Source: an uncultured archaeon
GTDB taxonomy: Archaea > Thermoproteota > Bathyarchaeia > Bathyarchaeales > Bathycorpusculaceae
Assembly: GCA_938023865.1 (NCBI GenBank)
Contig: CALJDG010000019.1
Location: forward strand, 852-64,851
Length of the DNA: 64,000 bases
Direction of reading: 5' to 3'
Position 1 is the stretch's first letter, and each line of letters opens with the position of its first letter. The translations under genes were made by a program, and so were the position numbers. Positions 12,996 to 34,235 of the stretch are shown here, piece after piece. The notes under the pieces were generated by a model. That model had not been told where the DNA came from and ran no database searches. It saw only the letters and a program-made list of their open reading frames with translations.

Positions 12996-14105
12996 TTAGC
13001 TTGGTTTTATGGATGTTTTCAGTCCTGTTCCAGTAAGGATTATTACTGTTTTCTTTTTTCGTGGTTTTGCTTCTTTCCTTGGTTGTTTTTGGTAGGCTGC
13101 ATAGGCCACCGCTGAGCTTGGCTCCACATATATTCCTGTTCTGGCTAACCTTTTGAAGGCTTGGTGGATTTCCTCTTCCTCAACAGTTATGGCATCTCCG
13201 TTTACCTCTCTTAAACTTTTAACCATAAGCTCTAATAGTGGCGGGTTTGTGCTTACTAACGCGTCGGCGATGGAGTCTATCTTTTCTGGAGGATGGTAAG
13301 GCAAGCCTTTAAAGCGCTGGTATAAAGGCGAAACTTGCCTTGTCTGACAGGCCACAATTTTGGGCAAATCCTTAATTACACCCGCCTCTTTTAGATGCTT
13401 AAAACCGTTTATAACGCCTAGAAGCAGTGTTCCAGCCGAGACTGGAAGGTAAATCTTTTCCGGGACTTCCCACCCTAACTGTTCGGCTATTTCGTATGCC
13501 AAACTTCTTATCCCATCACGGAAAAGGGGATGCAAAATATGTCCGACATAAAACTTTCCCTCTTCTGTTTTTTGGGCTTCATCAGCCACACGGCTTCTAG
13601 AACCAGCCACCTTCTTAACCTCTGCACCATAAAACATTATTTGGTTGAACTTCGGTCCAGAAACTCCCTCCGGCACATATATTTTAGCTTTTATCCCGGC
13701 GCGGGCGGCGTAAGCAGCCATGGAAGCTCCAGCATTGCCAGAAGAATCCTCGGCAATGTAGCCTCCGCTAGCCTTTATTTGCTTGTGAATTGCTGATATT
13801 AGCACAGTTGAGCCTCTATCCTTAAAAGAGCCTGTTGGGTTTAGATTTTCAAGTTTGAAGTAAAGGTTTTCTGAAAACTTAACCAGTGGCGTCCAACCCT
13901 CTCCTAGCGTCACAATTTCCGAGGCTTTCACATATGGGAAGAATTTTACGTAACGCCAAGCTCCACGGATGTCTGTTTGGATACCTCCGATGTTAAAGGT
14001 TACGTTAAGCTTTACGTCCAGCGGGCTTCCGCATTTTTGGCACTTGTAATCTATTAGGCTCGGGGCTTCTCGCCTGCAAATGGTGCATTTTACTTGATAA
14101 CTCAT
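12996..14105 (-). CDS. thrC: threonine synthase-like PLP enzyme (fold type II) with N-terminal zinc ribbon
   Basis: N-terminal CTIC...CQKC ribbon. PLP-lysine motif NPTGSFKDRGS, then SSGNAGAS. Length is 369 aa. Confidence 0.7.
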   Translation of the reverse strand: MSYQVKCTICRREAPSLIDYKCQKCGSPLDVKLNVTFNIGGIQTDIRGAWRYVKFFPYVKASEIVTLGEGWTPLVKFSENLYFKLENLNPTGSFKDRGSTVLISAIHKQIKASGGYIAEDSSGNAGASMAAYAARAGIKAKIYVPEGVSGPKFNQIMFYGAEVKKVAGSRSRVADEAQKTEEGKFYVGHILHPLFRDGIRSLAYEIAEQLGWEVPEKIYLPVSAGTLLLGVINGFKHLKEAGVIKDLPKIVACQTRQVSPLYQRFKGLPYHPPEKIDSIADALVSTNPPLLELMVKSLREVNGDAITVEEEEIHQAFKRLARTGIYVEPSSAVAYAAYQKQPRKEAKPRKKKTVIILTGTGLKTSIKPS

Positions 14106-18087: not shown

Positions 18088-19881
18088 TTGAATCTATTCA
18101 TATTCCTTTTAATTTGGGCAGTAGTTTGGTATATTCCAATACCTCCACAGAGAAATAGCTGGAGGAAGTCTAGGCGGATAATTTCTCTTCTTTTGGGCTT
18201 GTTTCTATTCTTTATAATCCAGTTTTCCCAGCCTCCATTAAGTGTATTTGTGTATCTTCTTGTTTTCCTTAGGTTGTTTGCCGCCTTTGTGGAGTCAGCT
18301 TTTTCTATAAAGCCGATTGGTCCAGAAGAAGCTGAAAAGAACTATTATTATCATTATAGGCGTTTGCCGTGGAAGATTTCATTGAAGGTCAGGGCGAGGC
18401 TTTTAGGCATTTTGTTTCTAATCTACTTGCTTTTAGCCTCCACAATGATTGTTTTTTGGCAGGTTCAGAGAGTAGCTAACGCCACATACTTTTTTAACAA
18501 CTTTATCCATGTGGAGTCTGGATTGCCCTTCAATACCGAAATTCCAGACAACATGGTGCGCCTTGTCACTGAGGAGCTTGCCATTTCAGTAGCCCGACGC
18601 CACATGTCGGAGTTCGGAAGTAACACCCAAGTTTTAGGATGCCACATCACAAAAACAGTGGAAGGCAAATTGGTCTGGGTTGCCGTCATAGGCTCAACAA
18701 ACGTTATAGCTGAAAACTATGTGAAAGGTTTTGTAATAATAGACGCCACAGATCCATTGGCGCCCCCTAAAATTTTGAGAAGGGAATTTGCCGTTGGCGA
18801 ATCCTTATGGTTTGACCATAACATCCACTTCTGCTCCTACATAAATGACATGTCAAAGTGTTATGGTGTTGCCTACATAACATGGAATTTCGAAACAAAC
18901 GAGACGGTGTACGTTGTAACCCGCTATAGTTTTGGCTTTGACCTAATAAGGCGTTATGAAACCCTGATAATCTATGATGAGAAGGGCAACCCTTATCCCC
19001 AATCAGGGTCGCTACTTCAGATCCCTACCTGGGTTACGCAAGTTTACGATGAAACATGGCTTGAAGAAATGATAAACGAGATGGGGAACTTCAGAAGGGG
19101 CGCGGGTTTTGATTATTGGGCTGGAGGATTCTTGTGGCTTATTCCACCAAGCCGAGAACGCTTCGAGATGACAGAGGACACACGTTACATCGTAGACCCA
19201 GAAACAGGCGATGTTGTGGCCTTAATCTGTGTGAACCCTATTGGTAATAAACGGACCCTTTCTGGAGTCTTTAAAGCCACAAGAGGCAGCATATTCTTCT
19301 GCGATTTCAGGCAAGCCAACTACATTTCAGGCATGACAGCCGAAGACCTTGTGGAGGGAAGACTTCCAAAACCTGCAGCTGGCATGTATGACGCAGAAAT
19401 GCCGCTTCTATATCCGGTGCAAATATCTCCTGGCAATTATCGACTTGCATGGTATGTGCCCATTTACTGGCGTGAAGCCATAAAGGGAAAAGAAGAAACT
19501 ATCTATTTGGCGGGTTTCGCTATAGTTGATGCAGAAGAAACAAGTAAAATAGCTATAAAAATACATGAGGAGGGTATGACAAGCGAACAGCTTGTACGCA
19601 CTACTAGACTAGAATACCTTAAACTTTTTGGGATTATAACTGAAATAGAGGTTAGCGCCAAAGTTTTGGGCAAATACGAGTATGTGGAGGATGGGACAAC
19701 TCACATAGTTCTCCGTTTAGATAATACTACGTACGAGTGGGTAGAAGCAACCCCTAAAGATCTTCCCTCACCTCAATGGAACAAGTTAATGGCGACGGAA
19801 AAAGGTCAGATTGTGGCTTTGCTTATCGAAAAACGCGGAGAAAAATGGATAATAACATATTTCGAAAACCCAAAAGTCTAA
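18088..19881 (+). CDS. hypothetical membrane-anchored protein (597 aa)
   Basis: About 4 N-terminal hydrophobic helices in residues 1-130, then a soluble region of about 460 aa rich in aromatic residues. I recognise no family motif. TTG start. Confidence 0.6.
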   Translation: MNLFIFLLIWAVVWYIPIPPQRNSWRKSRRIISLLLGLFLFFIIQFSQPPLSVFVYLLVFLRLFAAFVESAFSIKPIGPEEAEKNYYYHYRRLPWKISLKVRARLLGILFLIYLLLASTMIVFWQVQRVANATYFFNNFIHVESGLPFNTEIPDNMVRLVTEELAISVARRHMSEFGSNTQVLGCHITKTVEGKLVWVAVIGSTNVIAENYVKGFVIIDATDPLAPPKILRREFAVGESLWFDHNIHFCSYINDMSKCYGVAYITWNFETNETVYVVTRYSFGFDLIRRYETLIIYDEKGNPYPQSGSLLQIPTWVTQVYDETWLEEMINEMGNFRRGAGFDYWAGGFLWLIPPSRERFEMTEDTRYIVDPETGDVVALICVNPIGNKRTLSGVFKATRGSIFFCDFRQANYISGMTAEDLVEGRLPKPAAGMYDAEMPLLYPVQISPGNYRLAWYVPIYWREAIKGKEETIYLAGFAIVDAEETSKIAIKIHEEGMTSEQLVRTTRLEYLKLFGIITEIEVSAKVLGKYEYVEDGTTHIVLRLDNTTYEWVEATPKDLPSPQWNKLMATEKGQIVALLIEKRGEKWIITYFENPKV

Positions 19882-19983: not shown

Positions 19984-21834
19984 TTATTGAGTTAACGTAA
20001 GGTTTTTCGATAGTTGGTGGGCCGCATCCTTCAAACCAAGCCTTTCAAAGGTTGTTAATGTGGGTATTCCTCTTTTGTCCCATCCGCGTTTCGCATAAAA
20101 CGCATCGAGAAGCGTGTCAAACTTCGCTTTATCAAGCCTTGCTCCTTTATGGGGACCCTTTGTGATGGGCTCTGTAAACCAGCGTTTTGGCGGGTAATCC
20201 ATTAGGCGACTCCAACTTTGGCCGAACTCCCGTACCCAGAAGGCCCTTATTAGGACGTATATCCTGTCAGCTATTCTATAAAGCATGTCTTCAAGCGTTA
20301 CCTCCATGCCGGTGGCCGTCTTCATAAGCCTCGGGTACCACTCCAGCGGAAAACCGAGTTCAATCCATGGAAGTCGACATGCAACAAGAGATTCAAACAT
20401 TCCTCCCCTTATTCTCTGGAACTCTATTACTTTATCCACTTTGGCTTCTGTGTATCCTTCTCTGTCTGTTCTTATTTCCCACGCGATGACCCACGCCTCT
20501 TTATGGTGGGCACCTATTGATGACGTTGCAAAGGCGAGAGCCATCCCAGGGACAGTGTGACAATCATAGGCTGACACCTCGAGCCCCTTAATATGCATAG
20601 CCCAATTTTGTGAATCCCCACCGAGTTTTTGGCTTATCCTCATAACTCCTTCAGCTAGTAAGTTTCCAAGCTCTCCACGTCGGTATGCAATATCATGAAT
20701 TAAGGTTTTTACTTTTTCAAAATCTCCCCACTCCACTCCGTCTTTAATCAGCCCTTTCTCAGCTGCTTCCATCGCAAATCCTATGTTGTTACCCAAAGAA
20801 ATAGTGTCTATGCCAAGTTCGTCTGCCATCCTATTTAAAACGGAGACTTTTCCAAGATGCCCCAACCCAATATTCGAGCCTAACATGGCAACATTTTCAT
20901 AATCAAGTTCGGACTCCTTACCCTCAAAGTCGATTACAACATTTCCACACGCCATATTACAGTATGGACAACCTCTACGTTTAACTTTAGCCGCCTCCAT
21001 CGCAAAACCATTTATGAGATTACCAAATTCAAAGACGCCCTCTTTGAAGTTATAGGCAGGTAAAACACCGTTTTCATTAGCCCAATCTATAGTTGCCATC
21101 GTTCCCTGCCTTATCCAGAAGCCATAATAGTCTCTGCTTCTAATGTCGTCATAAGCCTCCTTAACGAGCCTATTATAACCCTCGGGATCTGCTAAAGGAA
21201 TATCTTTTGATCCCTTAAAGACTATAGCCTTAACCTTTTTAGAGCCCATAACGGCGCCCATTCCGGGCCTACCGCCGGCTCGCCCTTCCTGTGAAACAAT
21301 CGTTGCGTATCTAACCATGTTTTCTCCGCCAGGTCCTATGACGAGTGCTCCAACATCTTTTCCATGCACCTCTCTGAGCTCCTTCTCCGCTTCAAAAGTT
21401 GTCTTACCCCACATACCATTTGCACTTAAAATGCAGCCCTTATTCTCCTCCACATAGATATAAACGGGTCTCTCAGCTTTTCCTTCCACGACTAAGGCGT
21501 CAAATCCAGCCCTCCGCATCTGCACTGCAGCCATAGTTCCGACATTCCCATCCCCATAACCCCAAGTAAGCGGACTTTTGGCGGCTATGACCAACTTCCC
21601 TAAACTTGGTCCAGGAAGGCCCGTTAGCGGACCAGCAGCAACTACAAGCTTGTTTTCAGGACTAAAAGGATCTATTTCCGGTTTTAACTCATCGAAGAGG
21701 ACCTTAGCGGCAAAACCCCTTCCACCAATATATTTTAAAGCGAAATTAACGTCGTACTCTTCAACATCAACTTTCCTCTTTGAAAGGTTAACCCTTAAAA
21801 TCTTGCCGTTCCACCCATACATCTCCATCACCAT
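19984..21834 (-). CDS. aor: aldehyde:ferredoxin oxidoreductase family (tungstopterin enzyme)
   Basis: The N-terminus [18 protein letters not shown] is typical of AOR. Length is about 610 aa. It also carries the [12 protein letters not shown] and CPYCNMACG regions. Confidence 0.9.
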
Positions 21835-21900
21835 CTAAGCACGCATATCTTTTACTAAATTCTGCCCTTATATTAGACAGCTAACATATTAAGAGTTTCA

Positions 21901-22437
21901 TTAGTAAATTGATACTTTTGCCACGCCTTTTACTTTTAGAAATTCTGGAATTAGCTCTCCAGGAATTTTCTTCTCAGCTATTAATGTTAGCTTTGGTTCT
22001 GGCGATAGTTCTGGGTCATCAACTATTGCTTGCCTTATACTTAAGCCGTTTTTTGCCAGTATCATGGCTGAATTTGCCAATATGCCGGGTATTCTGGCGT
22101 CTATCGGGGTTATTTCCACAACTCCAAGCTCCAGGTATTTTGCTATTTCCTTTAAGGAGTGCCCAGCGGGCCTTAAGCCTTCAAATATGAGTCGGAGCTC
22201 ACGATTAGTTCTTATAGTGTTTATTGTTTCATTTACTGTTCTTCTATCTACGTCGGCTACTCTTGCTATGCGGGTTGGTGGGATTTCTATTTCATTTAGG
22301 TATATTTTTCCATTTTTTATGCACAGTCCGTTTTCTACAAGGATTCTTGCTACTTTTAGGCGTTCAGGATAGTTCTCGAAGTGCCTTTTTATTGTTTCCC
22401 ACATATTTCTGTCTGCCTGATGTACTTTTTTGCGCAA
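21901..22437 (-). CDS. ACT-domain regulator of amino-acid metabolism (COG2150-like), N-terminal HTH
   Basis: 178 aa. HTH-like RIARVADVDRRTVNETI. The C-terminal part (VEITPIDARIPGILANSAMILAKNGLSIRQAIV) resembles an ACT fold. Divergent from trpB2. The family assignment is from memory of the COG2150 architecture. Confidence 0.55.
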   Translation of the reverse strand: MRKKVHQADRNMWETIKRHFENYPERLKVARILVENGLCIKNGKIYLNEIEIPPTRIARVADVDRRTVNETINTIRTNRELRLIFEGLRPAGHSLKEIAKYLELGVVEITPIDARIPGILANSAMILAKNGLSIRQAIVDDPELSPEPKLTLIAEKKIPGELIPEFLKVKGVAKVSIY

Positions 22438-22494
22438 TAAAGTATAAATATGTTCAGTGTTTTATTATGTGCTTAAATGTATTAAAATGCACAG

Positions 22495-23868
22495 ATGGGG
22501 ATCATAATGAGCTTTAAGGCTCAGAAAAACGAATATTTCACGCCGCTAGAAGCAGATGAAATACCTGCCGCATGGTACAACATTCAAGCAGACCTGCCAG
22601 AACAGCTTCCGCCACCACTGGACCCCACAACCCTAAAACCCATAGACCCAAAACTTTTGGAAAGAATATTTGCAAAAGAGCTAATTAGGCAAGAGGTTTC
22701 CACGGAGCGCTTCATAAAAATTCCAGAGGATGTTTTAGAGGCCTATTTGAGACTACCAAGACCAACCCCGCTTTATAGAGCTAGCAGACTTGAAAGGTTT
22801 CTTAAAACTCCAGCGAAAATCTACTTTAAATGCGAAAACTTTAGTCCAACGGGAAGCCACAAGACGAATACTGCCATAGCCCAAGCCTACTACAACAAAG
22901 AGCAGGGGATAAAAAGGCTTGTAACTGAAACTGGCGCAGGACAGTGGGGTACAGCCCTTGCCTTCGCATGCGCAATTTTCAGTTTGATGTGCCGAATATA
23001 CATGGTCCGCGTCAGCTACCAGCAGAAGCCGGGAAGAAGAACTATAGCACAGTTATATGGCGCTGAGATGTTTCCTTCACCAAGCGACCAGACAAACTTT
23101 GGGAGAAAACTCTTAAAAGAAAATCCAAATCATCCAGGAACTTTGGGCATTGCCATAAGCGAAGCCATAGAAGACACGGTAACGCATGAGGACACAAGAT
23201 ATTCTTTGGGCTCTGTTTTAAACCATGTGCTGTTGCATCAGACCATCATAGGCTTAGAGGCCAAAAAACAGTTTGAAATTATTGGCGAGTACCCGGATGT
23301 TGTCTGCGGATGCATAGGCGGAGGCTCCAATTATGCTGGTTTCAGCTATCCATTCATGATGGACAAGCTTAAAGGCAAAACTGAAACAGAGTTTGTGGCT
23401 TGCGAGTCTAAGGCTGTTCCCCACACGACCAAAGGAGTTTATACATACGATTTCGGCGACACAGCTGAAATGACGCCACTACTTAAAATGCTAACAATAG
23501 GGCATGGCTACGCATGTCCCCCAATACACGCTGGAGGCTTAAGATACCATGGCATGGCGCCTTCGATATCTTACCTAATTTATAAAGGGTATATGCGTTC
23601 AGTAGCCTACCACCAAACCGAAGTCTTCCAGGCTGCGCAGATTCTGGCCCAAGCCGAGGGGCTCATAATAGCGCCAGAAACAGCCCATAGTCTAAAGTTC
23701 GTTATTGACGAGGCCTTGCTATGTCGAAAAACCGGTGAAAAGAAAGTTATTGCCATGAATTATAGCGGACATGGACTGCTGGATCTAGGCGCCTACGAAC
23801 AGTTCCTAGCCGGTAAGCTAATGGATTATGAGCCGGAAAAAATCGAAGCTCCCACGATTGTTAAATAA
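22495..23868 (+). CDS. trpB2: TrpB2-type tryptophan synthase beta-like PLP enzyme
   Basis: NFSPTGSHKTNTAIAQAYYNKEQG, TETGAGQWGTALA and GCIGGGSNYAG. The long N-terminal extension and 457-aa length are typical of TrpB2 rather than TrpB1. Confidence 0.9.
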   Translation: MGIIMSFKAQKNEYFTPLEADEIPAAWYNIQADLPEQLPPPLDPTTLKPIDPKLLERIFAKELIRQEVSTERFIKIPEDVLEAYLRLPRPTPLYRASRLERFLKTPAKIYFKCENFSPTGSHKTNTAIAQAYYNKEQGIKRLVTETGAGQWGTALAFACAIFSLMCRIYMVRVSYQQKPGRRTIAQLYGAEMFPSPSDQTNFGRKLLKENPNHPGTLGIAISEAIEDTVTHEDTRYSLGSVLNHVLLHQTIIGLEAKKQFEIIGEYPDVVCGCIGGGSNYAGFSYPFMMDKLKGKTETEFVACESKAVPHTTKGVYTYDFGDTAEMTPLLKMLTIGHGYACPPIHAGGLRYHGMAPSISYLIYKGYMRSVAYHQTEVFQAAQILAQAEGLIIAPETAHSLKFVIDEALLCRKTGEKKVIAMNYSGHGLLDLGAYEQFLAGKLMDYEPEKIEAPTIVK

Positions 23869-23889
23869 CGTCTAAAGGGCGACAGACAA

Positions 23890-24534
23890 GTGACAACAAC
23901 CCAAACCAACAATGTAGAGCAGTTTAAAATTGTACTTTTACCCATCGATGCATTAAAGCCCCACGAGAAAGGTTCTTCATTATATTTAGAGATGCTGAAA
24001 AGAGAGATTCTAAAGGACGGAGTTCTAAAATATCCGATAATTGCCGATGAAAAAACAAACATTATTCTTGACGGAATGCACAGGTGGCTTGCTCTAAAAA
24101 GTTTGGGTTGCGCACAAATACCAGTTCTGCAAGTCAACCTACTCCAAAACCCTCAAATTCGCATTGGGAGGAGGCGGATCCATCGGTATATTGGCAACTC
24201 GAACCCGCTGATAACGGCCGAGAATGTGGTTTCGGCAGCGCTTAGCGGAAAGTTGATGGAGCCCCGCACAACAAGACACTTTTTCCCCTTCCTAAAGCCC
24301 CCAAAAGTCAACTATCCACTCAACTACCTAGGAAAAAGCAAGCCTCAAGATGTCACTAAATACCTCGCAGAAACAACGCCAGAGGAGAGCAGAAAAGCCA
24401 TAAAGGGCTGGCTTGAAGAAATATCTGAAGAAATTAATTTCCTGAAACAGAGAATAGAGGAAGTAGAAAAGGAAAGAAAGGAGTTTATTAATAGAGTAAA
24501 GAGCCTGAACAACCACAATTATTCAAGCCGCTAG
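23890..24534 (+). CDS. ParB/sulfiredoxin-fold domain protein (candidate small-molecule kinase) with C-terminal coiled coil
   Basis: The N-terminal 85 aa (LLPIDALKPHE...ILDGMHRWLALKSLG) has the ParB/Srx pattern. GTG start lies 21 nt after the trpB2 stop on the same strand. Confidence 0.6.
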   Translation: MTTTQTNNVEQFKIVLLPIDALKPHEKGSSLYLEMLKREILKDGVLKYPIIADEKTNIILDGMHRWLALKSLGCAQIPVLQVNLLQNPQIRIGRRRIHRYIGNSNPLITAENVVSAALSGKLMEPRTTRHFFPFLKPPKVNYPLNYLGKSKPQDVTKYLAETTPEESRKAIKGWLEEISEEINFLKQRIEEVEKERKEFINRVKSLNNHNYSSR

Positions 24535-24691
24535 TCCTAATCTTTCAATACTGTTTCACAACTGTGCTAAAATTATGAAGAGCATCATACTTGTAAAGAA
24601 AAATTCATTCAAGCTGTAAACATGACATAGAGTATATTATGGACTTTCTAGCAAGTTTTAATAAATTTGAAGATAGCATACTAACGAGGAC

Positions 24692-25807
24692 TTGGCTGTG
24701 ATTCCTATAAATGCTCCGCAAATAGGCGAAGAGGAGATTGCGGCTGCCGTAAATGTTTTGAAAAGCGGTATTCTCACCCATGCACTTGGTTCTGGTCCTA
24801 TGGTAAAGCGTTTTGAAGAGGATTTCGCGCGTTTCGTTGAGGCTAAAAACGCCATAGCCGTAAACAGCGGAACTGCGGCCTTGCACATGGCTCTCATTGC
24901 CATTGGCGTAAAACGAGGCGATGAGGTGGTTTTGCCGAGCTTCACCTTTGTGGCAACAGCTGAAACTGTTATTATGGCTGGGGCGAAACCAGTTTTTGTG
25001 GACATTGATCCTGAAACATACAATATTTCCTTGGAGGCTGTTGAAAAGGTACTAACAAAGAAGACGAAGGCGGTGATCGTCGTAGACCTTTATGGTTCGC
25101 CCGCGGATCTAAAACCGATAAGAGAGATGGCTAACAAATGTGGATTGAAGGTTATTGAGGATGCTGCCCAAGCCCATGGGGCGACCTATAACGGCAAACC
25201 AGTGGGTGCATACGCGGACGTTGCCTGTTGGAGCTTTTATGCAAGCAAAAACATGACAACGGGGGAAGGCGGCATGATAACCACAAATGATGATGCGGTT
25301 GCCGAAACCCTTAGACTTATAAGAAGCCACGGTGAGAAGGAAAAGTATAAGTCCATCCTTTTAGGGCACAACTACCGCATGCCAGAAATCGAAGCGGCCA
25401 TAGGCCTTGTGCAGCTTAAAAAATTGCCGAATTTTCTAGCTAAGCGGAAGGAAAACGCGGAAAAACTCACAGCGAAACTACGCGGTGTAAAAAATATTAA
25501 GCTGCCATGCGAACCAAAGGGCTGTGGAAACAGTTGGTACCTTTATACAATAAAAATCGAAGATGCGGATAGAGCAAAGAGAGACACAATAGTTGAAAAT
25601 TTAAGGAGGGAAGGCATAGGCGCTGAGGTCTACTATCCATGGCCCATCCATTTAATGCCATATTATCGTAAGTTTAGAAAGGGAAAGCTCACAGAAACAG
25701 AGAAAGCCTCGGAGCAAGTTTTTTCCTTACCTGTTCATCCCGGAGTTACGGCGGAGCAGATAGAATTTATAGGCGAGGCGGTTTCTCGTTTGGTTAGGCA
25801 TGTTTGA
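24692..25807 (+). CDS. DegT/DnrJ/EryC1/StrS family sugar aminotransferase
   Basis: NSGTAALHMAL, DAAQAHGA and SFYASKNMTTGEGG (PLP lysine). Length is 371 aa. Start is TTG 24692 or GTG 24698. Confidence 0.9.
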   Translation: MAVIPINAPQIGEEEIAAAVNVLKSGILTHALGSGPMVKRFEEDFARFVEAKNAIAVNSGTAALHMALIAIGVKRGDEVVLPSFTFVATAETVIMAGAKPVFVDIDPETYNISLEAVEKVLTKKTKAVIVVDLYGSPADLKPIREMANKCGLKVIEDAAQAHGATYNGKPVGAYADVACWSFYASKNMTTGEGGMITTNDDAVAETLRLIRSHGEKEKYKSILLGHNYRMPEIEAAIGLVQLKKLPNFLAKRKENAEKLTAKLRGVKNIKLPCEPKGCGNSWYLYTIKIEDADRAKRDTIVENLRREGIGAEVYYPWPIHLMPYYRKFRKGKLTETEKASEQVFSLPVHPGVTAEQIEFIGEAVSRLVRHV

Positions 25808-25885
25808 ACAGCTAGGTTTTTATATTTATACCGGCTAGTATAGTGCCTTCACTGAACTTGGTGGTTTTGCGGGGGTACTCACTTT

Positions 25886-27223
25886 ATGGCAAAAGTAAGG
25901 GTTATTATAATGGGCGCAGCCGGAAGGGACTTTCACAATTTTAACGTCTACTTTAGGGATAACGATGCCTATGAAGTTGTGGCTTTCACAGCCACTCAGA
26001 TTCCAGGTATAGAGGGAAGAGTATATCCGCCCGAGCTCGCTGGCAAAAAATATCCGAACGGTGTGCCAATTTATCCAGAAATAGAACTTGCGAGGCTGAT
26101 AAGGGATTTTGACGTTGATCAAGTTATTTTCGCCTACAGCGACGTCTCTCACGAACACGTTATGCACAAAGCGTCAATAGTGCTGGCAAATGGTGCGGAC
26201 TTTAGACTTATGGGGCCAAAGACAACGATGCTTAAGGCTAAAGTTCCATTAATCTCTGTGGGCGCTGTAAGAACTGGTTCCGGAAAAAGCCAAACATCGC
26301 GACAAGTGGCCAAAATCTTGAAAGGTAAAGGCTTAAACGTGGTGGTTGTTAGACATCCTATGCCCTATGGAGACTTGCGCAGGCAGATCTGCCAACGCTT
26401 CGCGTCTCACGAGGATCTTGACCGATATGAGTGCACTATTGAGGAAAGAGAAGAATACGAACCGCACATAGACAATGGAGTGGTTGTATACGCCGGTGTT
26501 GACTACGAGAAGATTTTAAGGGAAGCTGAAAAGGAGGCGGACATCATAGTTTGGGATGGGGGAAACAATGACACCCCCTTTTACAAACCAGACCTTCACA
26601 TAGTTTTGGCAGATCCCCATAGGGCAGGACACGAAATAACGTATCACCCAGGAGAGGCCAACCTCAGGATGGCAAACGTGGTGATAATAAATAAGGTCGA
26701 TACGGCAGATCCCCAAAACGTCAGTTTCGTTAAGGATAATATAAGGAAGGTTAATCCAAACGCTATTATTCTTGAGGCCTCATCACCAATAACCGCTGAC
26801 AAGCCTGAGCTAATTAAAGGTAAACGGGTGCTCGTAATTGAAGATGGTCCCACGTTAACTCACGGAGACATGCCTTACGGTGCAGCAACAATAATGGCAA
26901 AACAGCTTGGAGCAAGCGAGTTAGCTGACCCAAGACCATACGCTGTTGGCTCAATAAAAAAGGCATTTGAAAAGTATCCCCACCTTGGAACAGTTCTCCC
27001 AGCCCTAGGCTATGGAGAAAAGCAAATTGAGGAGCTTAATGAAACAATTATGCGCACACCGTGTGACGTTGTAGTTATCGGAACACCAGTAGATCTAAGA
27101 AGAGTTATGAAAATCTCCAAGCCAACGGTGAGGGTGAAATATGAACTTAAAGTTCTGGGGCCATTATCTCTAGAACAGATTTTGGAAGAATTCATCGGGA
27201 AAGTGCAGAATCATGGGAAATGA
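25886..27223 (+). CDS. COG2403-type P-loop NTPase (predicted GTPase, related to cyclic 2,3-diphosphoglycerate synthetase family)
   Basis: N-terminal RVIIMGAAGRDFHNFN. Walker A-like GAVRTGSGKSQTS. Length is 445 aa. The family call is from memory of this N-terminal signature. Confidence 0.5.
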   Translation: MAKVRVIIMGAAGRDFHNFNVYFRDNDAYEVVAFTATQIPGIEGRVYPPELAGKKYPNGVPIYPEIELARLIRDFDVDQVIFAYSDVSHEHVMHKASIVLANGADFRLMGPKTTMLKAKVPLISVGAVRTGSGKSQTSRQVAKILKGKGLNVVVVRHPMPYGDLRRQICQRFASHEDLDRYECTIEEREEYEPHIDNGVVVYAGVDYEKILREAEKEADIIVWDGGNNDTPFYKPDLHIVLADPHRAGHEITYHPGEANLRMANVVIINKVDTADPQNVSFVKDNIRKVNPNAIILEASSPITADKPELIKGKRVLVIEDGPTLTHGDMPYGAATIMAKQLGASELADPRPYAVGSIKKAFEKYPHLGTVLPALGYGEKQIEELNETIMRTPCDVVVIGTPVDLRRVMKISKPTVRVKYELKVLGPLSLEQILEEFIGKVQNHGK

Positions 27224-27596
27224 AGAAGGCGAAATCTCAAGAATAAAAATAAAATTCGTTATTGAGGGTTTAGGCGAAGCTGAAGCTGAGCTTGTCCGCC
27301 ACCTAGCCCCAAGGACGGTGGACATGATAGTCCGAAAACTACCAATAGTGGGAAGGGCTGCCCTATGGAAGGAAGAAGTATACTTCGAAATTCCGGTAAA
27401 AATGGGTGAAGAAAAAGCGAAAGCCACCGTGGGAAAAGGCACAATAGCCTTCTGGCCCATGGGAAGCGCCCTGTGCATTTTTTTTGGCGAGTCCCAGCCC
27501 TATAGCCCAGTTAACGTTTTAGGGAAGGTTACTAAAAATCTTGAAGTTTTCTGTAAGATAAAAAGTGGAACAACCATTAGGGTTGAAAAGTTATAA
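27213..27596 (+). CDS. cyclophilin-like fold protein (TM1367-like family)
   Basis: GTIAFWPMGSALCIFFGESQPYSPVNVLGKV matches the G-x-IAYW-x-G-x-AL-x-IFFG pattern of this family. It overlaps the upstream gene by 11 nt. Confidence 0.55.
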   Translation: MGNEEGEISRIKIKFVIEGLGEAEAELVRHLAPRTVDMIVRKLPIVGRAALWKEEVYFEIPVKMGEEKAKATVGKGTIAFWPMGSALCIFFGESQPYSPVNVLGKVTKNLEVFCKIKSGTTIRVEKL

Positions 27597-30497: not shown

Positions 30498-31682
30498 TTA
30501 ACTTTTCAGCTTTTCAACAGCCTTGCTTATGCGATCTAAAGCCTTCTCAATGTTCTCAACAGAGTTTGCAAATGATATGCGCAAATACCCTTCCCCATAT
30601 CTCCCAAAGGAAGTTCCCGGCAGAACTGCCACACCAGCCTCGTTGAGTAAGTAATCTGAAAATTCCTTTGATTTCTTCCCGATGCCTTTTATGTTTGGGA
30701 AAACGTAAAAGGCGCCTTTAGGCTTCTTGCATGTTATGCCTTTAATGTTGTTTAAGCCTGAAACAATGACCTCTCTTCTTTTTCTAAATTCTGCAACCAT
30801 TTTGTCAATAGAATCTTGCGGACCCTTCAGAGCTTCAACTCCAGCTATTTGGATGAAGGCGCATGTGCAGGAGTTCGAATTAACCATGAGCTGTGTGATT
30901 TTTTCAGCTAGAGCCTTCCGCATGACCCCGTAGCCGAGTCTCCAGCCTGTCATGGCGTAGGTTTTCGAAAAACCATCTAATACTATGGTTTTATCCCTCA
31001 TTCCCGGAAGTGAAGCAATACTTTCATGGATCCCCTCGTAAATTATTTTGCTGTAAATCTCGTCGGAAAGCACTACAACATCGTCTCTGTTGGCTATGCA
31101 GTCAGCTATAACCTTTAAATCTTCTTTTGTCAAAACGCCGCCCGTTGGGTTTTCAGGGGAGTTCAAAATAATCATTTTAGTCCTTTTGGTTATCTTAGCC
31201 TTGACATACTCGTGGTCCATCCTGAAATCGTTCTCCTCCTTGAGCGGGATTGGTACTGGTTTAGCTCCAACAAAGTTTATCACAGACTCGTAAATTGGAA
31301 AGCCTGGATTTGGATATAAGACCTCCTCGCCACTGTTCACGCATGCTAGTATGGCGAAAAACATTATCGGCTTAGCTCCTGGTGTAACAACAACTTCATC
31401 TGGGTCAACTGGAATATTCCTAGTTTTTGAGACGTACTCGGCTATGGCTTCCCGCAATTCGGGGATGCCAGCAGCCGGTACATAGTGGGTGTAGCCGGCG
31501 TAAAGAGCCCTTACGGCGGCCTCTTTAATGTTTTGGGGTGTGTCAAAATCGGGTTCACCTATTTCCAAATGAATTATTTCTTTACCTTGCCGTTCCAGAG
31601 CTTTCGCACGAGCGAGTACTTCAAAGGCAGTTTCAGTTCCAAGAACCGTCATCCTATCAGCAAATATGGAAACCATTAACAA
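30498..31682 (-). CDS. class I/II PLP-dependent aminotransferase (aspartate aminotransferase-like)
   Basis: IHLEIGEPDFDTP, NPENPTGG and FSKTYAMTGWRLGY (PLP lysine), with a C-terminal RISFA motif. Length is 394 aa. Confidence 0.9.
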   Translation of the reverse strand: MLMVSIFADRMTVLGTETAFEVLARAKALERQGKEIIHLEIGEPDFDTPQNIKEAAVRALYAGYTHYVPAAGIPELREAIAEYVSKTRNIPVDPDEVVVTPGAKPIMFFAILACVNSGEEVLYPNPGFPIYESVINFVGAKPVPIPLKEENDFRMDHEYVKAKITKRTKMIILNSPENPTGGVLTKEDLKVIADCIANRDDVVVLSDEIYSKIIYEGIHESIASLPGMRDKTIVLDGFSKTYAMTGWRLGYGVMRKALAEKITQLMVNSNSCTCAFIQIAGVEALKGPQDSIDKMVAEFRKRREVIVSGLNNIKGITCKKPKGAFYVFPNIKGIGKKSKEFSDYLLNEAGVAVLPGTSFGRYGEGYLRISFANSVENIEKALDRISKAVEKLKS

Positions 31683-31726
31683 TCACCAACGTGCTAGGTA
31701 TGTGTAAAAGGTGAATGAACATTGTA

Positions 31727-31745
31727 TTTAACTATTATAGTTAAA
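31727..31745. promoter_or_regulatory. 19-bp perfect palindrome TTTAACTAT-T-ATAGTTAAA
   Basis: Verified base by base: 9-bp arms around a single central T. It lies 18 nt downstream of the gyaR stop and about 40-55 nt upstream of the aminotransferase start. Confidence 0.3.
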
Positions 31746-31762
31746 GGGGGCAAAAAGGCATG

Positions 31763-32770
31763 TTAAAAGAGCTTGGATAAGGGGCGGACTTTAACGACGT
31801 CAGGGTTAACGAGGTTAGGCGGAGCTTTCCCGTTGAAGAACGCAACCAAATTTTCGGCCACCATTTCGGCCATCTTTGAACGGGTTTCGTGGCTTGCACT
31901 TGAGATGTGAGGCGCCAAAACGACATTGTCAAGCTTAAGCAGAGGATTTTCTGTCGGCGTGGGTTCTTGTTCAAAAACGTCTAAGGCTGCGCCCGCAATC
32001 CATCCTTCTTTTAAAGCCTTATAAAGGGCTTTTTCATCCACTATAGGCCCTCTAGAATTGTTGATTAGGTAAGCCGTCTTTTTCATTAGCCTCAGCTTCT
32101 CCTCGTTGATTAAGTGGTAAGTTTCCTTAATTAAGGGGACATGGACGCTAACGAAGTCTGATTCCTTTAAAAGCGTATCTAGGTCCACGCGTTTAGCTCC
32201 GAGCTCCTTCTCTATTTCTGGCGACATGGGCACAACATCGTAGTAGAGAATTTTCATGTTGAAGCCCTTTGCCCTTCGCGCGACCGCTGTTCCAATTCTA
32301 CCAGCTCCCACGATACCTATTGTTGCGCCATAGACATCTCTACCTAAAAGCATGCTTGGGTGCCAGCTGACCTTCCACTGTCCAGTGCGCACGTACTTAT
32401 CCGCTTCAACAACACGTCTCGAAACAGCCATTAACAAAGCCCAAGCAAAATCCGCTGTGGTTTCTGTTAAAACACCGGGAGTATTTGTAACATATATGCC
32501 TCTTTTAGTGGCTTCGGCAACGTCTATGTTGTCAAAGCCAACAGCCATTTGAGCGACAATTTTCAGTTTCGGCCCTGCATCGAAAACCTCGGCGTCAATC
32601 TTATCTGACAAAAGTGTGATCAAGGCGTCAACATTCCTCGCCTTTTTTATTATTTCCTTTTTTGGCGGCGGACCATATTCCGGCCAGACTTCAGCTTCAA
32701 AATGCTCCTTTATTATTTTCATGCCCCTTTCTGGAAGCTCGCGGGTTACGTAAACCTTCGGTTTTGGCAT
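31763..32770 (-). CDS. gyaR: glyoxylate/hydroxypyruvate reductase (D-2-hydroxyacid dehydrogenase family)
   Basis: [30 protein letters not shown]-terminus. [19 protein letters not shown] fold. APHISSAS motif. Length is 335 aa. Confidence 0.85.
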
Positions 32771-32858
32771 AATGTTCCACCGATCAGTGAAACACTTTAT
32801 TAATGTTCAACTTATTACATTTACGATTTCCTGTGTTTAAAGTCCGATGGTGCCCTAA

Positions 32859-34235
32859 ATGTCGATTATTAAAAATTTGGAGCAATTAATTCAAAACGGC
32901 GAAACAAATCTTGATAAAAAAGCAAGGAAGTTAGCCCTAAAAAGCCTCGAAGCTGCCATAAAGGCTGTGGATCCTAAATCGCTAATTAAATCGAAGCTGA
33001 GGCTTAAAGGCTCAATTCTTCGCGTTAATGGGTGTACTTTTGACTTTAGAAGGTATAAGAACATATACGTGATAGGTGGAGGTAAGGCATGCGGCTTAAT
33101 GGCTGAAGCCTTAGAGGAGGTTTTAGGCGACAAAATCACAAGCGGGCTCGTAAATGTTCCAAAAGAGACCAAACATCAAACACGCATAGTTAAGCTTCAT
33201 AAGGCAAGCCACCCAATTCCAGACGAGTCAGGAGTTGAAGGGACAGGAAAAATGCTCGAAATAGCCGAAAGAGCTAGCGAAGAAGACCTAATAATATGCC
33301 TAATTTCGGGCGGAGGCTCAAGCCTGATGCCCATGCCAAGAGGCGAAATAACAATAGCTGACAAAAGGCAAATAACAGAGGACCTACTAAAGTGCGGTGC
33401 CACAATAAACGAAATAAACACCGTCAGAAAACACCTCTCAGAGTTTAAGGGCGGATGGCTTGCAAAGAAGGCTTATCCCGCAACAATCCTAAACCTTATC
33501 CTATCAGATGTTTTAGGCGACCCGCTGGATTTTATCGCCTCAGGACCAACCGTTCCAGACTCAACAACCTTCAGCGACGCCATAAAAGTCTTGAATAAAT
33601 ATAGCTTGTGGGATAAAGCTCCGAAATCAATAAAGAAAGTCCTAACGGACGGGGAGAAGGGTCTAATACCAGAAACGCCAAAAGTTGGGGACGAAACATT
33701 CAAAAAAGTTTTCAGTGTTGTCATCGGAAACAACAGAGTCGCAAGCATGGCAGCATGTGAGACCCTTAAATCTGAAGGGTTGTGCACGCTTCTGTTGACA
33801 TCGCTTCTTGAAGGCGAAGCAAGACATATAGGAACAGTTCTAGCCTCACTAACCCTTGAAATTTTAGCCTCGGGAAACCCAATTAAAAAGCCTGCTGCTA
33901 TAGTGGCCGGCGGCGAAACGACAGTTACTGTCGTTGGAAAAGGTAAGGGTGGAAGGAACCAGGAAATAGCCTTGGCAGCTTCGCTGAAAATTAGAGGCTT
34001 GCAAGGCGTCGCTATAGCCTCATTGAGCACGGATGGAGTGGATGGACCAACAGACGCTGCAGGAGCAATATCCGACGGAAAAACAATAGCAAGAGCAGAA
34101 GTCCTTGGGCTGGGGGCTGAGGAATTCTTGGCAGACAACAACTCTTACAACTTCTTTTCTCAACTCGGCGACTTAATCATTACAGGTCCAACGGGCACAA
34201 ACGTTAACGACGTTTCAGTCATCATAGTATTATAA
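32859..34235 (+). CDS. glycerate 2-kinase (DUF4147 + MOFRL domains)
   Basis: VIGGGKACGLMAEALEE, LISGGGSSL and GGETTVTVVGKGKGGRNQEIAL, with a C-terminal TGPTGTNVNDV motif. Confidence 0.85.
   Translation: MSIIKNLEQLIQNGETNLDKKARKLALKSLEAAIKAVDPKSLIKSKLRLKGSILRVNGCTFDFRRYKNIYVIGGGKACGLMAEALEEVLGDKITSGLVNVPKETKHQTRIVKLHKASHPIPDESGVEGTGKMLEIAERASEEDLIICLISGGGSSLMPMPRGEITIADKRQITEDLLKCGATINEINTVRKHLSEFKGGWLAKKAYPATILNLILSDVLGDPLDFIASGPTVPDSTTFSDAIKVLNKYSLWDKAPKSIKKVLTDGEKGLIPETPKVGDETFKKVFSVVIGNNRVASMAACETLKSEGLCTLLLTSLLEGEARHIGTVLASLTLEILASGNPIKKPAAIVAGGETTVTVVGKGKGGRNQEIALAASLKIRGLQGVAIASLSTDGVDGPTDAAGAISDGKTIARAEVLGLGAEEFLADNNSYNFFSQLGDLIITGPTGTNVNDVSVIIVL

Follow-up and report, generated by a model that had tools for sequence, protein, structure and literature searches.

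Within a stretch of 64,000 nucleotides (nt) from an uncultured bathyarchaeon (GenBank assembly GCA_938023865.1, contig CALJDG010000019.1, positions 852 to 64,851; the whole stretch is referred to below as the window), a gene for a stand-alone TrpB2-type tryptophan synthase beta chain (trpB2, positions 22495-23868 of the window, plus strand, 457 amino acids (aa)) is followed on the same strand by a gene with a GTG start (23890-24534, 214 aa) that encodes a short-form relative of SerK and SbnI, a putative free L-serine kinase. A gene of the TrpY family of regulators (longest open reading frame (ORF) 21901-22437, minus strand, 178 aa) is transcribed divergently from this pair. On the evidence of the sequences and of a structural model, we consider it probable that these genes constitute a tryptophan-repressed two-gene operon with a divergent trpY, in which the short SerK-like protein makes O-phosphoserine for TrpB2. 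The spacer between trpB2 and the kinase-like gene (23869-23889, 21 nt) is consistent with co-transcription, and both this spacer and the three ORFs lie exactly where an earlier note on the window had placed them. The family and fold assignment, the conserved residues and the recurrent pairing with relatives of O-phosphoserine users were all computed here.

Sequence and predicted fold of the 214-residue protein

The two ParB/sulfiredoxin motifs that the earlier note had quoted, LLPIDALKPHE and DGMHRWLALKSLG, are both present in the 214-residue protein. The ParB_N domain of Pfam matched it with 17.4 bits, under the gathering score of 26.3, and the best named NCBIfam models were SerK (NF053625, 49.3 bits) and SbnI (NF033589, 37.2 bits), both of which match residues 11-85, the N-terminal domain only, and both of which score far under their equivalog cut-offs. 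For SerK, the ADP-dependent L-serine kinase, this cut-off is 380 bits, and residues 11-85 correspond to model positions 13-91. The sole significant sequence matches in the PDB were SbnI (5uje, 5ujd, 6nr6) and SerK (1vk1, 5x0b and mutants), and a second stretch aligned by phmmer (residues 109-144 with 204-238 of 1vk1) comprises the C-terminal helix and the P(K/R)TTRH..PF loop.

An AlphaFold2 (AF2) model of the protein, built on 36 diverse relatives, had a mean pLDDT of 91.9 and a pTM of 0.84. The top nine matches of this model in a Foldseek search of the PDB were all SerK or SbnI and spanned both domains (E of about 5e-8 to 2e-6, about 228 columns), with a TM-score of 0.54 against this family, whereas DNA-binding ParB, Noc, KorB and sulfiredoxin matched only the first 76-120 columns with E>=2.7e-4, the sulfiredoxin matches extending over 77-112 columns with E>=3.7e-3. 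Identification as a DNA-binding ParB, Noc or KorB was rejected, given the ParB_N score under the gathering threshold, the lack of a helix-turn-helix and the restriction of the fold matches to the N-terminal part. Sulfiredoxin was rejected also: its catalytic Cys sits in an (F/S)GGCHR motif, the homologous motif here is LDGMHR without a Cys, and the sulfiredoxin matches are short.

Residue E26, within KPHE (23956-23967), aligns with E30 of SerK (1vk1/5x0b), the residue that was mutated in the E30A and E30Q crystal structures (PDB 5x0e, 5x0g, 5x0j and 5x0k). DGMHR is found at residues 61-65 (24070-24084) and PRTTRH at residues 125-130 (24262-24279). In comparisons with 26-36 diverse relatives, down to about 27% identity, E26, D61, G62, R65, P125, R129 and H130 never vary, and H64 and T128 hardly do. 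The earlier note had proposed that loss of the SerK active site, or grouping with DNA-binding ParB or nuclease families, would speak against a kinase; the catalytic-residue check that it called for came out in favour of one, because the protein groups with free serine kinases, and not with DNA-binding ParB, and keeps their signature residues (E26 as the counterpart of SerK E30, DGxHR and PRTTRH). By sequence and by predicted fold, the protein belongs to the SerK/SbnI lineage of free serine kinases. It is not an orthodox SerK by sequence: in addition to its score far under the equivalog cut-off, it has a spacing of 64 residues from DGxHR to TTRH, compared with approximately 135-170 in SerK-like proteins, and it is missing the central insertion of about 60-80 residues that long-form proteins possess, such as those of the loci L014 and L015. 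Residues 164-213 (24379-24528) are predicted by the AF2 model to form one long, extra, amphipathic C-terminal helix.

The short-form family

A search of 1.84 billion representative proteins returned 1160 relatives, which the spacing of DGxHR and TTRH divides into two classes, one long and SerK-like, the other short. The short class includes the Bathyarchaeia clade to which the window protein belongs, a very large group of minimal proteins of 130-170 aa with the motifs KPHE, ILDGHHR and PPKTSRH, and fusions to cytidylyltransferase-like (CTP_transf_like), NTP-transferase and Asn_synthase domains. Among the nearest relatives outside Bathyarchaeia, P0125, P0127, P0131, P0139 and P0142 share the spacing of 63-64 residues and the C-terminal helix of the window clade and have fused domains besides. 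In P0141, the short-form domain is fused to a CysK/CysM-type enzyme dependent on pyridoxal phosphate (PLP). P0141, P0145, P0150, P0153 and P0168 are tandem duplications that carry the KPHE/DGHHR/PKTSRH unit twice in one chain; in P0141 the second unit, which precedes the CysK/M domain, is degenerate. The family is represented in Bathyarchaeia, other Thermoproteota, Micrarchaeota and some bacteria.

Two unusual relatives were also noted. P0126 (266 aa) consists of the last 72 or so residues of a TrpB2 joined to a diverged sulfiredoxin-like (Srx-like) domain (41% identity) with N in place of D61 and a distal part that looks garbled; its origin is either natural fusion or a frameshift in the assembly. 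P0122 (990-1607 of locus L016) is a diverged Bathyarchaeia copy (46-49% identity), with an H64R replacement and part of the RRIHRY segment missing, and is a singleton on a 2.7-kb contig that may be a decaying paralog; a search seeded with P0122 found no independent lineage.

The TrpB2 enzyme

The product of trpB2 scored 690.6 bits on the NCBIfam model NF009057 (cut-off 366) and 677 bits on TIGR01415 (cut-off 518.85), and the closest solved structures are Sulfolobus TrpB2 enzymes (6hul, 500 bits; 4qys, 472 bits). Its PLP-binding lysine is K123 in GSHK (22852-22863), and the TrpB2 signature GGLRYHG occupies residues 347-353 (23533-23553). Its family scores and motifs make this enzyme an unambiguous TrpB2. 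A fragment search intended to align the Arg of TrpB2, the presumed determinant of specificity for phosphoserine, with Asp305 of TrpB1 brought back TrpB2 structures only. Characterised TrpB2 enzymes are O-phosphoserine-dependent tryptophan synthases, reported to prefer this co-substrate to L-serine, according to Busch 2014 as cited in PMC11917138. Pfam detected no TrpA, TrpC, TrpD, TrpE, TrpF or TrpG domain in the 64 kb of the window, in agreement with the earlier note that trpA and other trp genes are absent; for ORF groups 4 and 18, which lay outside the Pfam scan, visual inspection pointed to a P-type ATPase and an HdrA-like protein.

Conservation of the pair in Bathyarchaeia

Outside trp operons, trpB2 has been described as having no conserved gene neighbourhood (Merkl 2007, PMC1854888). 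A search of genome contigs with the window protein alone found 15 loci, of which 13 are from close Bathyarchaeia relatives and constitute evidence of conservation, not independent occurrences; all close homologs of the 214-residue protein come from metagenome-assembled genomes of Bathyarchaeia. The arrangement of minus-strand trpY, trpB2 and Srx-like gene is found in every one of the 13 Bathyarchaeia species-representative genomes that carry the gene (TrpB2 84-96% identical across them) and on three further contigs (L017-L019), of which the TrpB2 and Srx-like proteins are 81% and 57-63% identical to those of the window, respectively; it is therefore not a product of chance. The upstream neighbours vary from locus to locus (AFOR, a 597-aa ORF or Hdr-like genes), and downstream there are 0.8-2.9 kb between the Srx-like gene and a block beginning with a DegT gene in several genomes; in L001 the intervening DNA encodes a secreted protein of 888 aa on the opposite strand. 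Since the upstream flanks differ and downstream insertions occur, the conserved unit comprises the regulator and the pair.

The block downstream consists in the window (24692-27596) of a DegT/DnrJ/EryC1 aminotransferase, a 445-aa P-loop protein with weak matches to cobW, MipZ and HypB, and an overlapping cyclophilin-like protein. This trio is kept across Bathyarchaeia but can be separated from the trpB2 pair; its genes were rejected as members of the unit because the 888-aa opposite-strand gene or other DNA intervenes in several relatives and L013 has no DegT gene.

Recurrence in distant lineages

Seven minimal-form genes were examined from different taxa: three overlap or adjoin a CysK/M-type gene (L021, L022 and L025) and one heads a gcvH-gcvPA-gcvPB-lplA operon. 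A metagenome search then yielded 584 confirmed relatives, of which the best 80 loci were kept; these are the best matches to one query and not an unbiased census. A trpB2 gene on the same strand adjoins the kinase-like gene in 12 of the 80 loci, with TrpB2 proteins 53-61% identical to that of the window. In 17 others the partner is a 390-aa enzyme with its best PDB match in CysO of Aeropyrum pernix (264 bits, compared with approximately 113 for ordinary CysK), a characterised O-phosphoserine sulfhydrylase (OPSS; 1wkv/3vsa). A CysM-type enzyme is found in 10 loci, and among its PDB matches is CysM of M. tuberculosis, which carries the label 'O-phosphoserine sulfhydrylase' there; gcvH-gcvP adjoins in seven loci. 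Collapsed at 70% identity, the 80 loci became 40 clusters, of which 9 are linked to TrpB2, 10 to OPSS, 4 to CysM and 2 to glycine cleavage (Gcv) genes, and none is mixed.

The 9 TrpB2-linked clusters (<70% identity) range in GC content from 0.36 to 0.60 and exhibit both gene orders, and their trpB2/kinase-like junctions vary between an overlap of 11 nt and a gap of 23 nt. All of the TrpB2 partners carry HAGGLRYHG and score 684-703 bits on NF009057. TrpB2-linked loci fall at approximately six places in a rough neighbour-joining tree without support values, with L044 and L041 beside the Bathyarchaeia clade. In L054, L060/L061 and L071, a TrpY-family gene scoring over the cut-off lies upstream of the pair and is divergent from it, and L071 has the opposite gene order. 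The survey of synteny between trpB2 and ParB/Srx genes that the earlier note had suggested thus turned up recurrent linkage throughout Bathyarchaeia and in 9 further clusters, in both orders and often with TrpY.

Adjacency could in principle be inherited synteny without functional coupling, the gene travelling in a larger conserved Bathyarchaeia block. The block does reach the DegT, 445-aa P-loop protein and cyclophilin-like genes in many Bathyarchaeia, and the 13 species representatives are closely related, as their TrpB2 identities attest; however, the pair persists where its flanks change on either side, and it recurs in the 9 distant clusters with widely different GC content, both orders, overlapping or 3-23-nt junctions and Trp regulators. 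We regard this explanation as very improbable, and the recurrence data have largely refuted it.

Several other associations of the minimal-form genes were observed. In L086 (1675-5188, GC 0.36), genes for a YerC/YecD regulator related to TrpR, a radical-SAM protein, a minimal SerK-like protein and an overlapping TrpB2 all run in one direction; by sequence, the YerC/YecD gene, which lies upstream of the pair, represents another kind of Trp-linked regulator, unrelated to TrpY. A minimal SerK-like gene heads gcvH-gcvPA-gcvPB(-lplA) operons in L023, L068, L073, L093, L096, L097, L098 and L104, and at least one of the gcv-linked loci is in Thermodesulfobacteriota, which ties the family to glycine and serine catabolism in bacteria. 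Minimal kinase and cysteine-synthase-like pairs stand beside TusA in L021 (3603-5713) and beside IscS/NifS and NifU in L025 (2202-5283), and these sulfur-trafficking neighbours are consistent with an O-phosphoserine-based route to cysteine.

TrpY and the divergent control region

The earlier note had described the divergent gene as an ACT-domain regulator. A divergent regulator gene it is, but no ACT domain was detected by Pfam at E<=0.01, and the protein instead scores 193.3 bits on the TrpY family model NF053754 (cut-off 180), residues 13-175 corresponding to model positions 1-163. On this sequence evidence, assignment to TrpY is both narrower and more informative than a generic ACT label.

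Among 16 aligned loci, the conserved translation starts are probably M12 of TrpY and M5 of TrpB2 (ATG at 22507), and homologs of TrpY with a length of 167 aa also support the start at M12. The trpY gene probably extends from 21901 to 22404 (start at 22404, 167 aa), therefore, and TrpB2 probably has 453 aa. The 57-nt spacer of the earlier note (22438-22494) is correct as the distance between the longest ORFs; with the conserved starts, the control region is likelier to be approximately 102 nt (22405-22506). The MAFFT alignment of the 16 loci revealed a conserved core at about 22419-22456, ATGTAC(T/A)TTTTTGTGCAATAAAGTATAAATATGTTC, with TGTAC-type boxes and a sequence resembling a BRE/TATA promoter, AAAGTATAAATA. 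Two further (A)TGTAC-type repeats lie at about 22477-22493, by the trpB2 start, and a GGAGG/GGTGA-like Shine-Dalgarno sequence precedes the ATG at 22507. The TGTAC-type boxes resemble the TRP box of Methanothermobacter, TGTACA. No match to Rfam was found over positions 21500-25000, and scans for sigma-70 promoters and intrinsic terminators, neither of which is a model applicable to archaea, gave no more hits than expected from shuffled sequence.

TrpY is a Trp-responsive repressor that acts at divergent promoters (PMC6737238), and trpB2 of M. thermautotrophicus is regulated by TrpY, according to the title of Karr 2008. In T. kodakarensis, the trp genes are not targets of the TrpY homolog (PMC6737238), so the function of TrpY cannot be assumed from membership of the family.

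The presence of TrpY as a dedicated regulator bears on another explanation, namely that the 214-residue protein is itself a nucleotide-binding regulator or structural partner: a ParB-like NTP switch, a transcription factor like SbnI, or an allosteric partner of TrpB2 that replaces TrpA, with the long C-terminal helix for dimerisation or docking. The SbnI model NF033589 does describe a bifunctional transcriptional regulator and O-phosphoserine synthase, ParB-fold proteins do act as NTP-dependent switches (PMC12704722), the amphipathic helix at residues 164-213 is long, and the stand-alone TrpB2 has no TrpA partner in the window. Neither Pfam nor Foldseek detected a helix-turn-helix or other DNA-binding domain, however, and the minimal relatives that pair with TrpB2 have no C-terminal helix, so that a purely regulatory or scaffolding role is unlikely; the catalytic Glu and the phosphate-binding motifs are invariant, which favours catalysis. 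Altogether we attach a low probability to this explanation.

Proposed pathway

The pathway that we favour would begin with phosphorylation of free L-serine by the 214-residue protein, acting as a small-molecule kinase of the ParB/sulfiredoxin fold (SerK/SbnI branch); E26 would serve as the general base, and DGMHR and PRTTRH would line the pocket for nucleotide, phosphate and substrate. The adjacent TrpB2, with PLP on K123 and Arg350 of GGLRYHG at the leaving-group site, would take the O-phospho-L-serine and join it to indole to produce L-tryptophan and phosphate. The outcome would be indole capture or tryptophan synthesis that is driven by nucleoside triphosphate (NTP), effectively irreversible and independent of TrpA, and TrpY bound at the TGTAC-type boxes of the divergent region of about 102 nt would shut the unit down when tryptophan is plentiful. 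We infer four elements of this pathway: serine as the substrate, the phosphate donor, the use of O-phosphoserine by the window TrpB2, and Trp-dependent repression.

Several points weigh against this pathway. The 214-residue protein has only 49 bits on the SerK model, against the equivalog cut-off of 380, and since the central insertion is missing, its substrate pocket may differ and serine specificity cannot be assumed. The closest relatives outside Bathyarchaeia (30-36% identity) are the cytidylyltransferase-like, NTP-transferase and Asn-synthase fusions, which may phosphorylate something other than serine. No surveyed partner is present in 15 of the 40 minimal-form clusters, and upstream of P0122 in L016 there is approximately 800 nt of ORF-free DNA instead of trpB2. 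As for the donor, SerK enzymes of Desulfurococcales and SbnI use ATP. A SerK-like archaeal protein reportedly bound CTP and not ATP (PMC12704722). Finally, SepRS is common in Bathyarchaeota (PMC5424206), which implies that O-phosphoserine has other sinks and is already made there, presumably from other sources, and that a dedicated kinase is not obviously required.

Some of these points lend themselves to a different interpretation, that the protein is a kinase or other nucleotide-dependent enzyme of the SerK/SbnI lineage whose substrate is not L-serine but another hydroxy-amino acid or an alcohol, or that it acts in the dephosphorylating direction, its link with TrpB2 being indirect. The nearest non-Bathyarchaeia relatives, with the same spacing and helix, are fused to CTP_transf_like, NTP_transferase or Asn_synthase domains, a kinase-plus-activation architecture expected for phospho-alcohols, and these nucleotidyltransferase-fused relatives suggest, from their domain composition, an undescribed pathway of phosphorylation followed by nucleotidyl activation. 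The insertion of long-form SerK-like proteins is missing here, and reversible serine kinase/phosphatase behaviour has been raised for another SbnI-like fold family in the GapMind preprint. On the other hand, the adjacent partners of the family are homologs of reported O-phosphoserine users (TrpB2, A. pernix-type OPSS, CysM) or belong to glycine and serine metabolism, the catalytic Glu and the TTRH loop of true serine kinases are invariant, and the window has no fused or adjacent cytidylyltransferase. We judge a non-serine substrate or reversed reaction to be rather unlikely.

The recurrence of the pairings invites a wider proposal, to which we give slightly less than even credence: that miniature free-serine kinases (130-215 aa) are a large and practically unannotated family providing a plug-in supply of O-phosphoserine to TrpB2, Aeropyrum-type OPSS and CysM, and that with TrpB2 they would replace TrpA functionally, and perhaps physically, to create an NTP-driven, indole-capturing tryptophan synthase.

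Other genes of the window

Some distance downstream of the unit, genes for a class I/II aminotransferase (30498-31682, minus strand) and a D-2-hydroxyacid dehydrogenase (31763-32770, minus strand) are divergent from a glycerate-kinase-family gene with DUF4147 and MOFRL domains (32859-34235, plus strand). This region (30498-34235) looks like a non-phosphorylated route through serine, hydroxypyruvate and glycerate. If serine is handled by such a route, O-phosphoserine would not be an intermediate of the pathway, and a dedicated kinase would be needed for that reason.

Upstream, a 597-aa protein (18088-19881) with N-terminal hydrophobic segments and no Pfam match is 79-91% identical in several related genomes, in some of which its gene directly adjoins trpY. 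A threonine-synthase-like PALP enzyme (12996-14105, minus strand) with an N-terminal CxxC...CxxC segment resembling a zinc ribbon is the second fold-type II PLP enzyme of the window and is unrelated to the trpB2 pair.

Significance

What stand-alone TrpB2 does physiologically has been under debate since the early 2000s, and the source of its O-phosphoserine is likewise a standing question. The pairing, which is recurrent, translationally coupled and accompanied by Trp-responsive regulators, provides a concrete and directly testable two-enzyme route, from serine and NTP to O-phosphoserine and then, with indole, to tryptophan and inorganic phosphate; if the wider proposal is true, the plug-in kinase would explain both the preference of TrpB2 for phosphoserine and the purpose of the stand-alone enzyme. 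Free serine kinases would be extended from a few hyperthermophiles and staphylococci to a widespread short-form family, the members of which are now labelled 'ParB N-terminal domain-containing protein', with consequences for how cysteine and tryptophan metabolism is annotated in uncultured archaea. A compact pair of kinase and TrpB may also be of use in the biocatalytic synthesis of tryptophan analogues.

No mention of TrpB2 together with ParB or a serine kinase was found in the openly searchable literature; a prior mention elsewhere is possible. The pairing of TrpB2 with a SerK-like protein is absent from a 2025 survey of the ParB-CTPase fold (PMC12704722) and from the 2026 GapMind preprint.

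Comparison with known systems

The SerK/SbnI fold, TrpB2 and TrpY are each of a known kind; novelty appears to lie in the short-form kinase family and in the systematic association of its members with TrpB2, OPSS and CysM. The ADP-dependent SerK of T. kodakarensis makes O-phosphoserine for CysK (PMC5120207), and clear-cut homologs of SerK were reported in Thermococcales and Desulfurococcales only, with no link to tryptophan (Makino et al.). The window protein has in common with T. kodakarensis SerK (TK0378; 5x0b) and with 1vk1 (PF0380) the ParB/Srx N-terminal domain, the Glu of KPHE, DGxHR, and the helix and P(K/R)TTRH..PF loop. SerK, with approximately 240-250 aa, contains the central insertion, whereas the window protein, with 214 aa, is without the insertion and has an extra long C-terminal helix; and whereas SerK supplies CysK, a PLP-dependent beta-replacement enzyme, the partner of the window protein is TrpB2.

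The SbnI-SbnA system of staphyloferrin B in Staphylococcus aureus is similar in that a ParB-fold serine kinase is clustered with a CysK-related PLP enzyme that consumes O-phosphoserine, and SbnI provides the best PDB sequence matches to the window protein, limited to residues 14-94. SbnI differs in being bacterial, of the long form (approximately 254 aa) and also a heme-responsive regulator of transcription, and the product of SbnA is a diaminopropionate precursor. Mutants of SbnI at E20 and D58 are reported. In 27 of the 80 loci, minimal-form genes adjoin PLP enzymes whose nearest relatives of solved structure are A. pernix CysO (1wkv/3vsa) and M. tuberculosis CysM; enzymes of this type accompany those minimal-form relatives and not the window protein.

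With respect to TrpB2, the likeness to the enzymes of Busch et al. 2014 and to Sulfolobus TrpB2a (4qys) is that of a bona fide TrpB2 with GGLRYHG. For the published TrpB2 enzymes no dedicated source of O-phosphoserine was found in the accessible literature, whereas trpB2 of the window has a SerK-like neighbour. TrpY of Methanothermobacter thermautotrophicus, which is known to regulate trpB2, is likewise transcribed divergently from its target, and repeated TGTAC-type boxes lie in the promoter region common to both; its target there is the trpEGCFBAD operon, and the corresponding target in the window would be the pair of trpB2 and the kinase-like gene.

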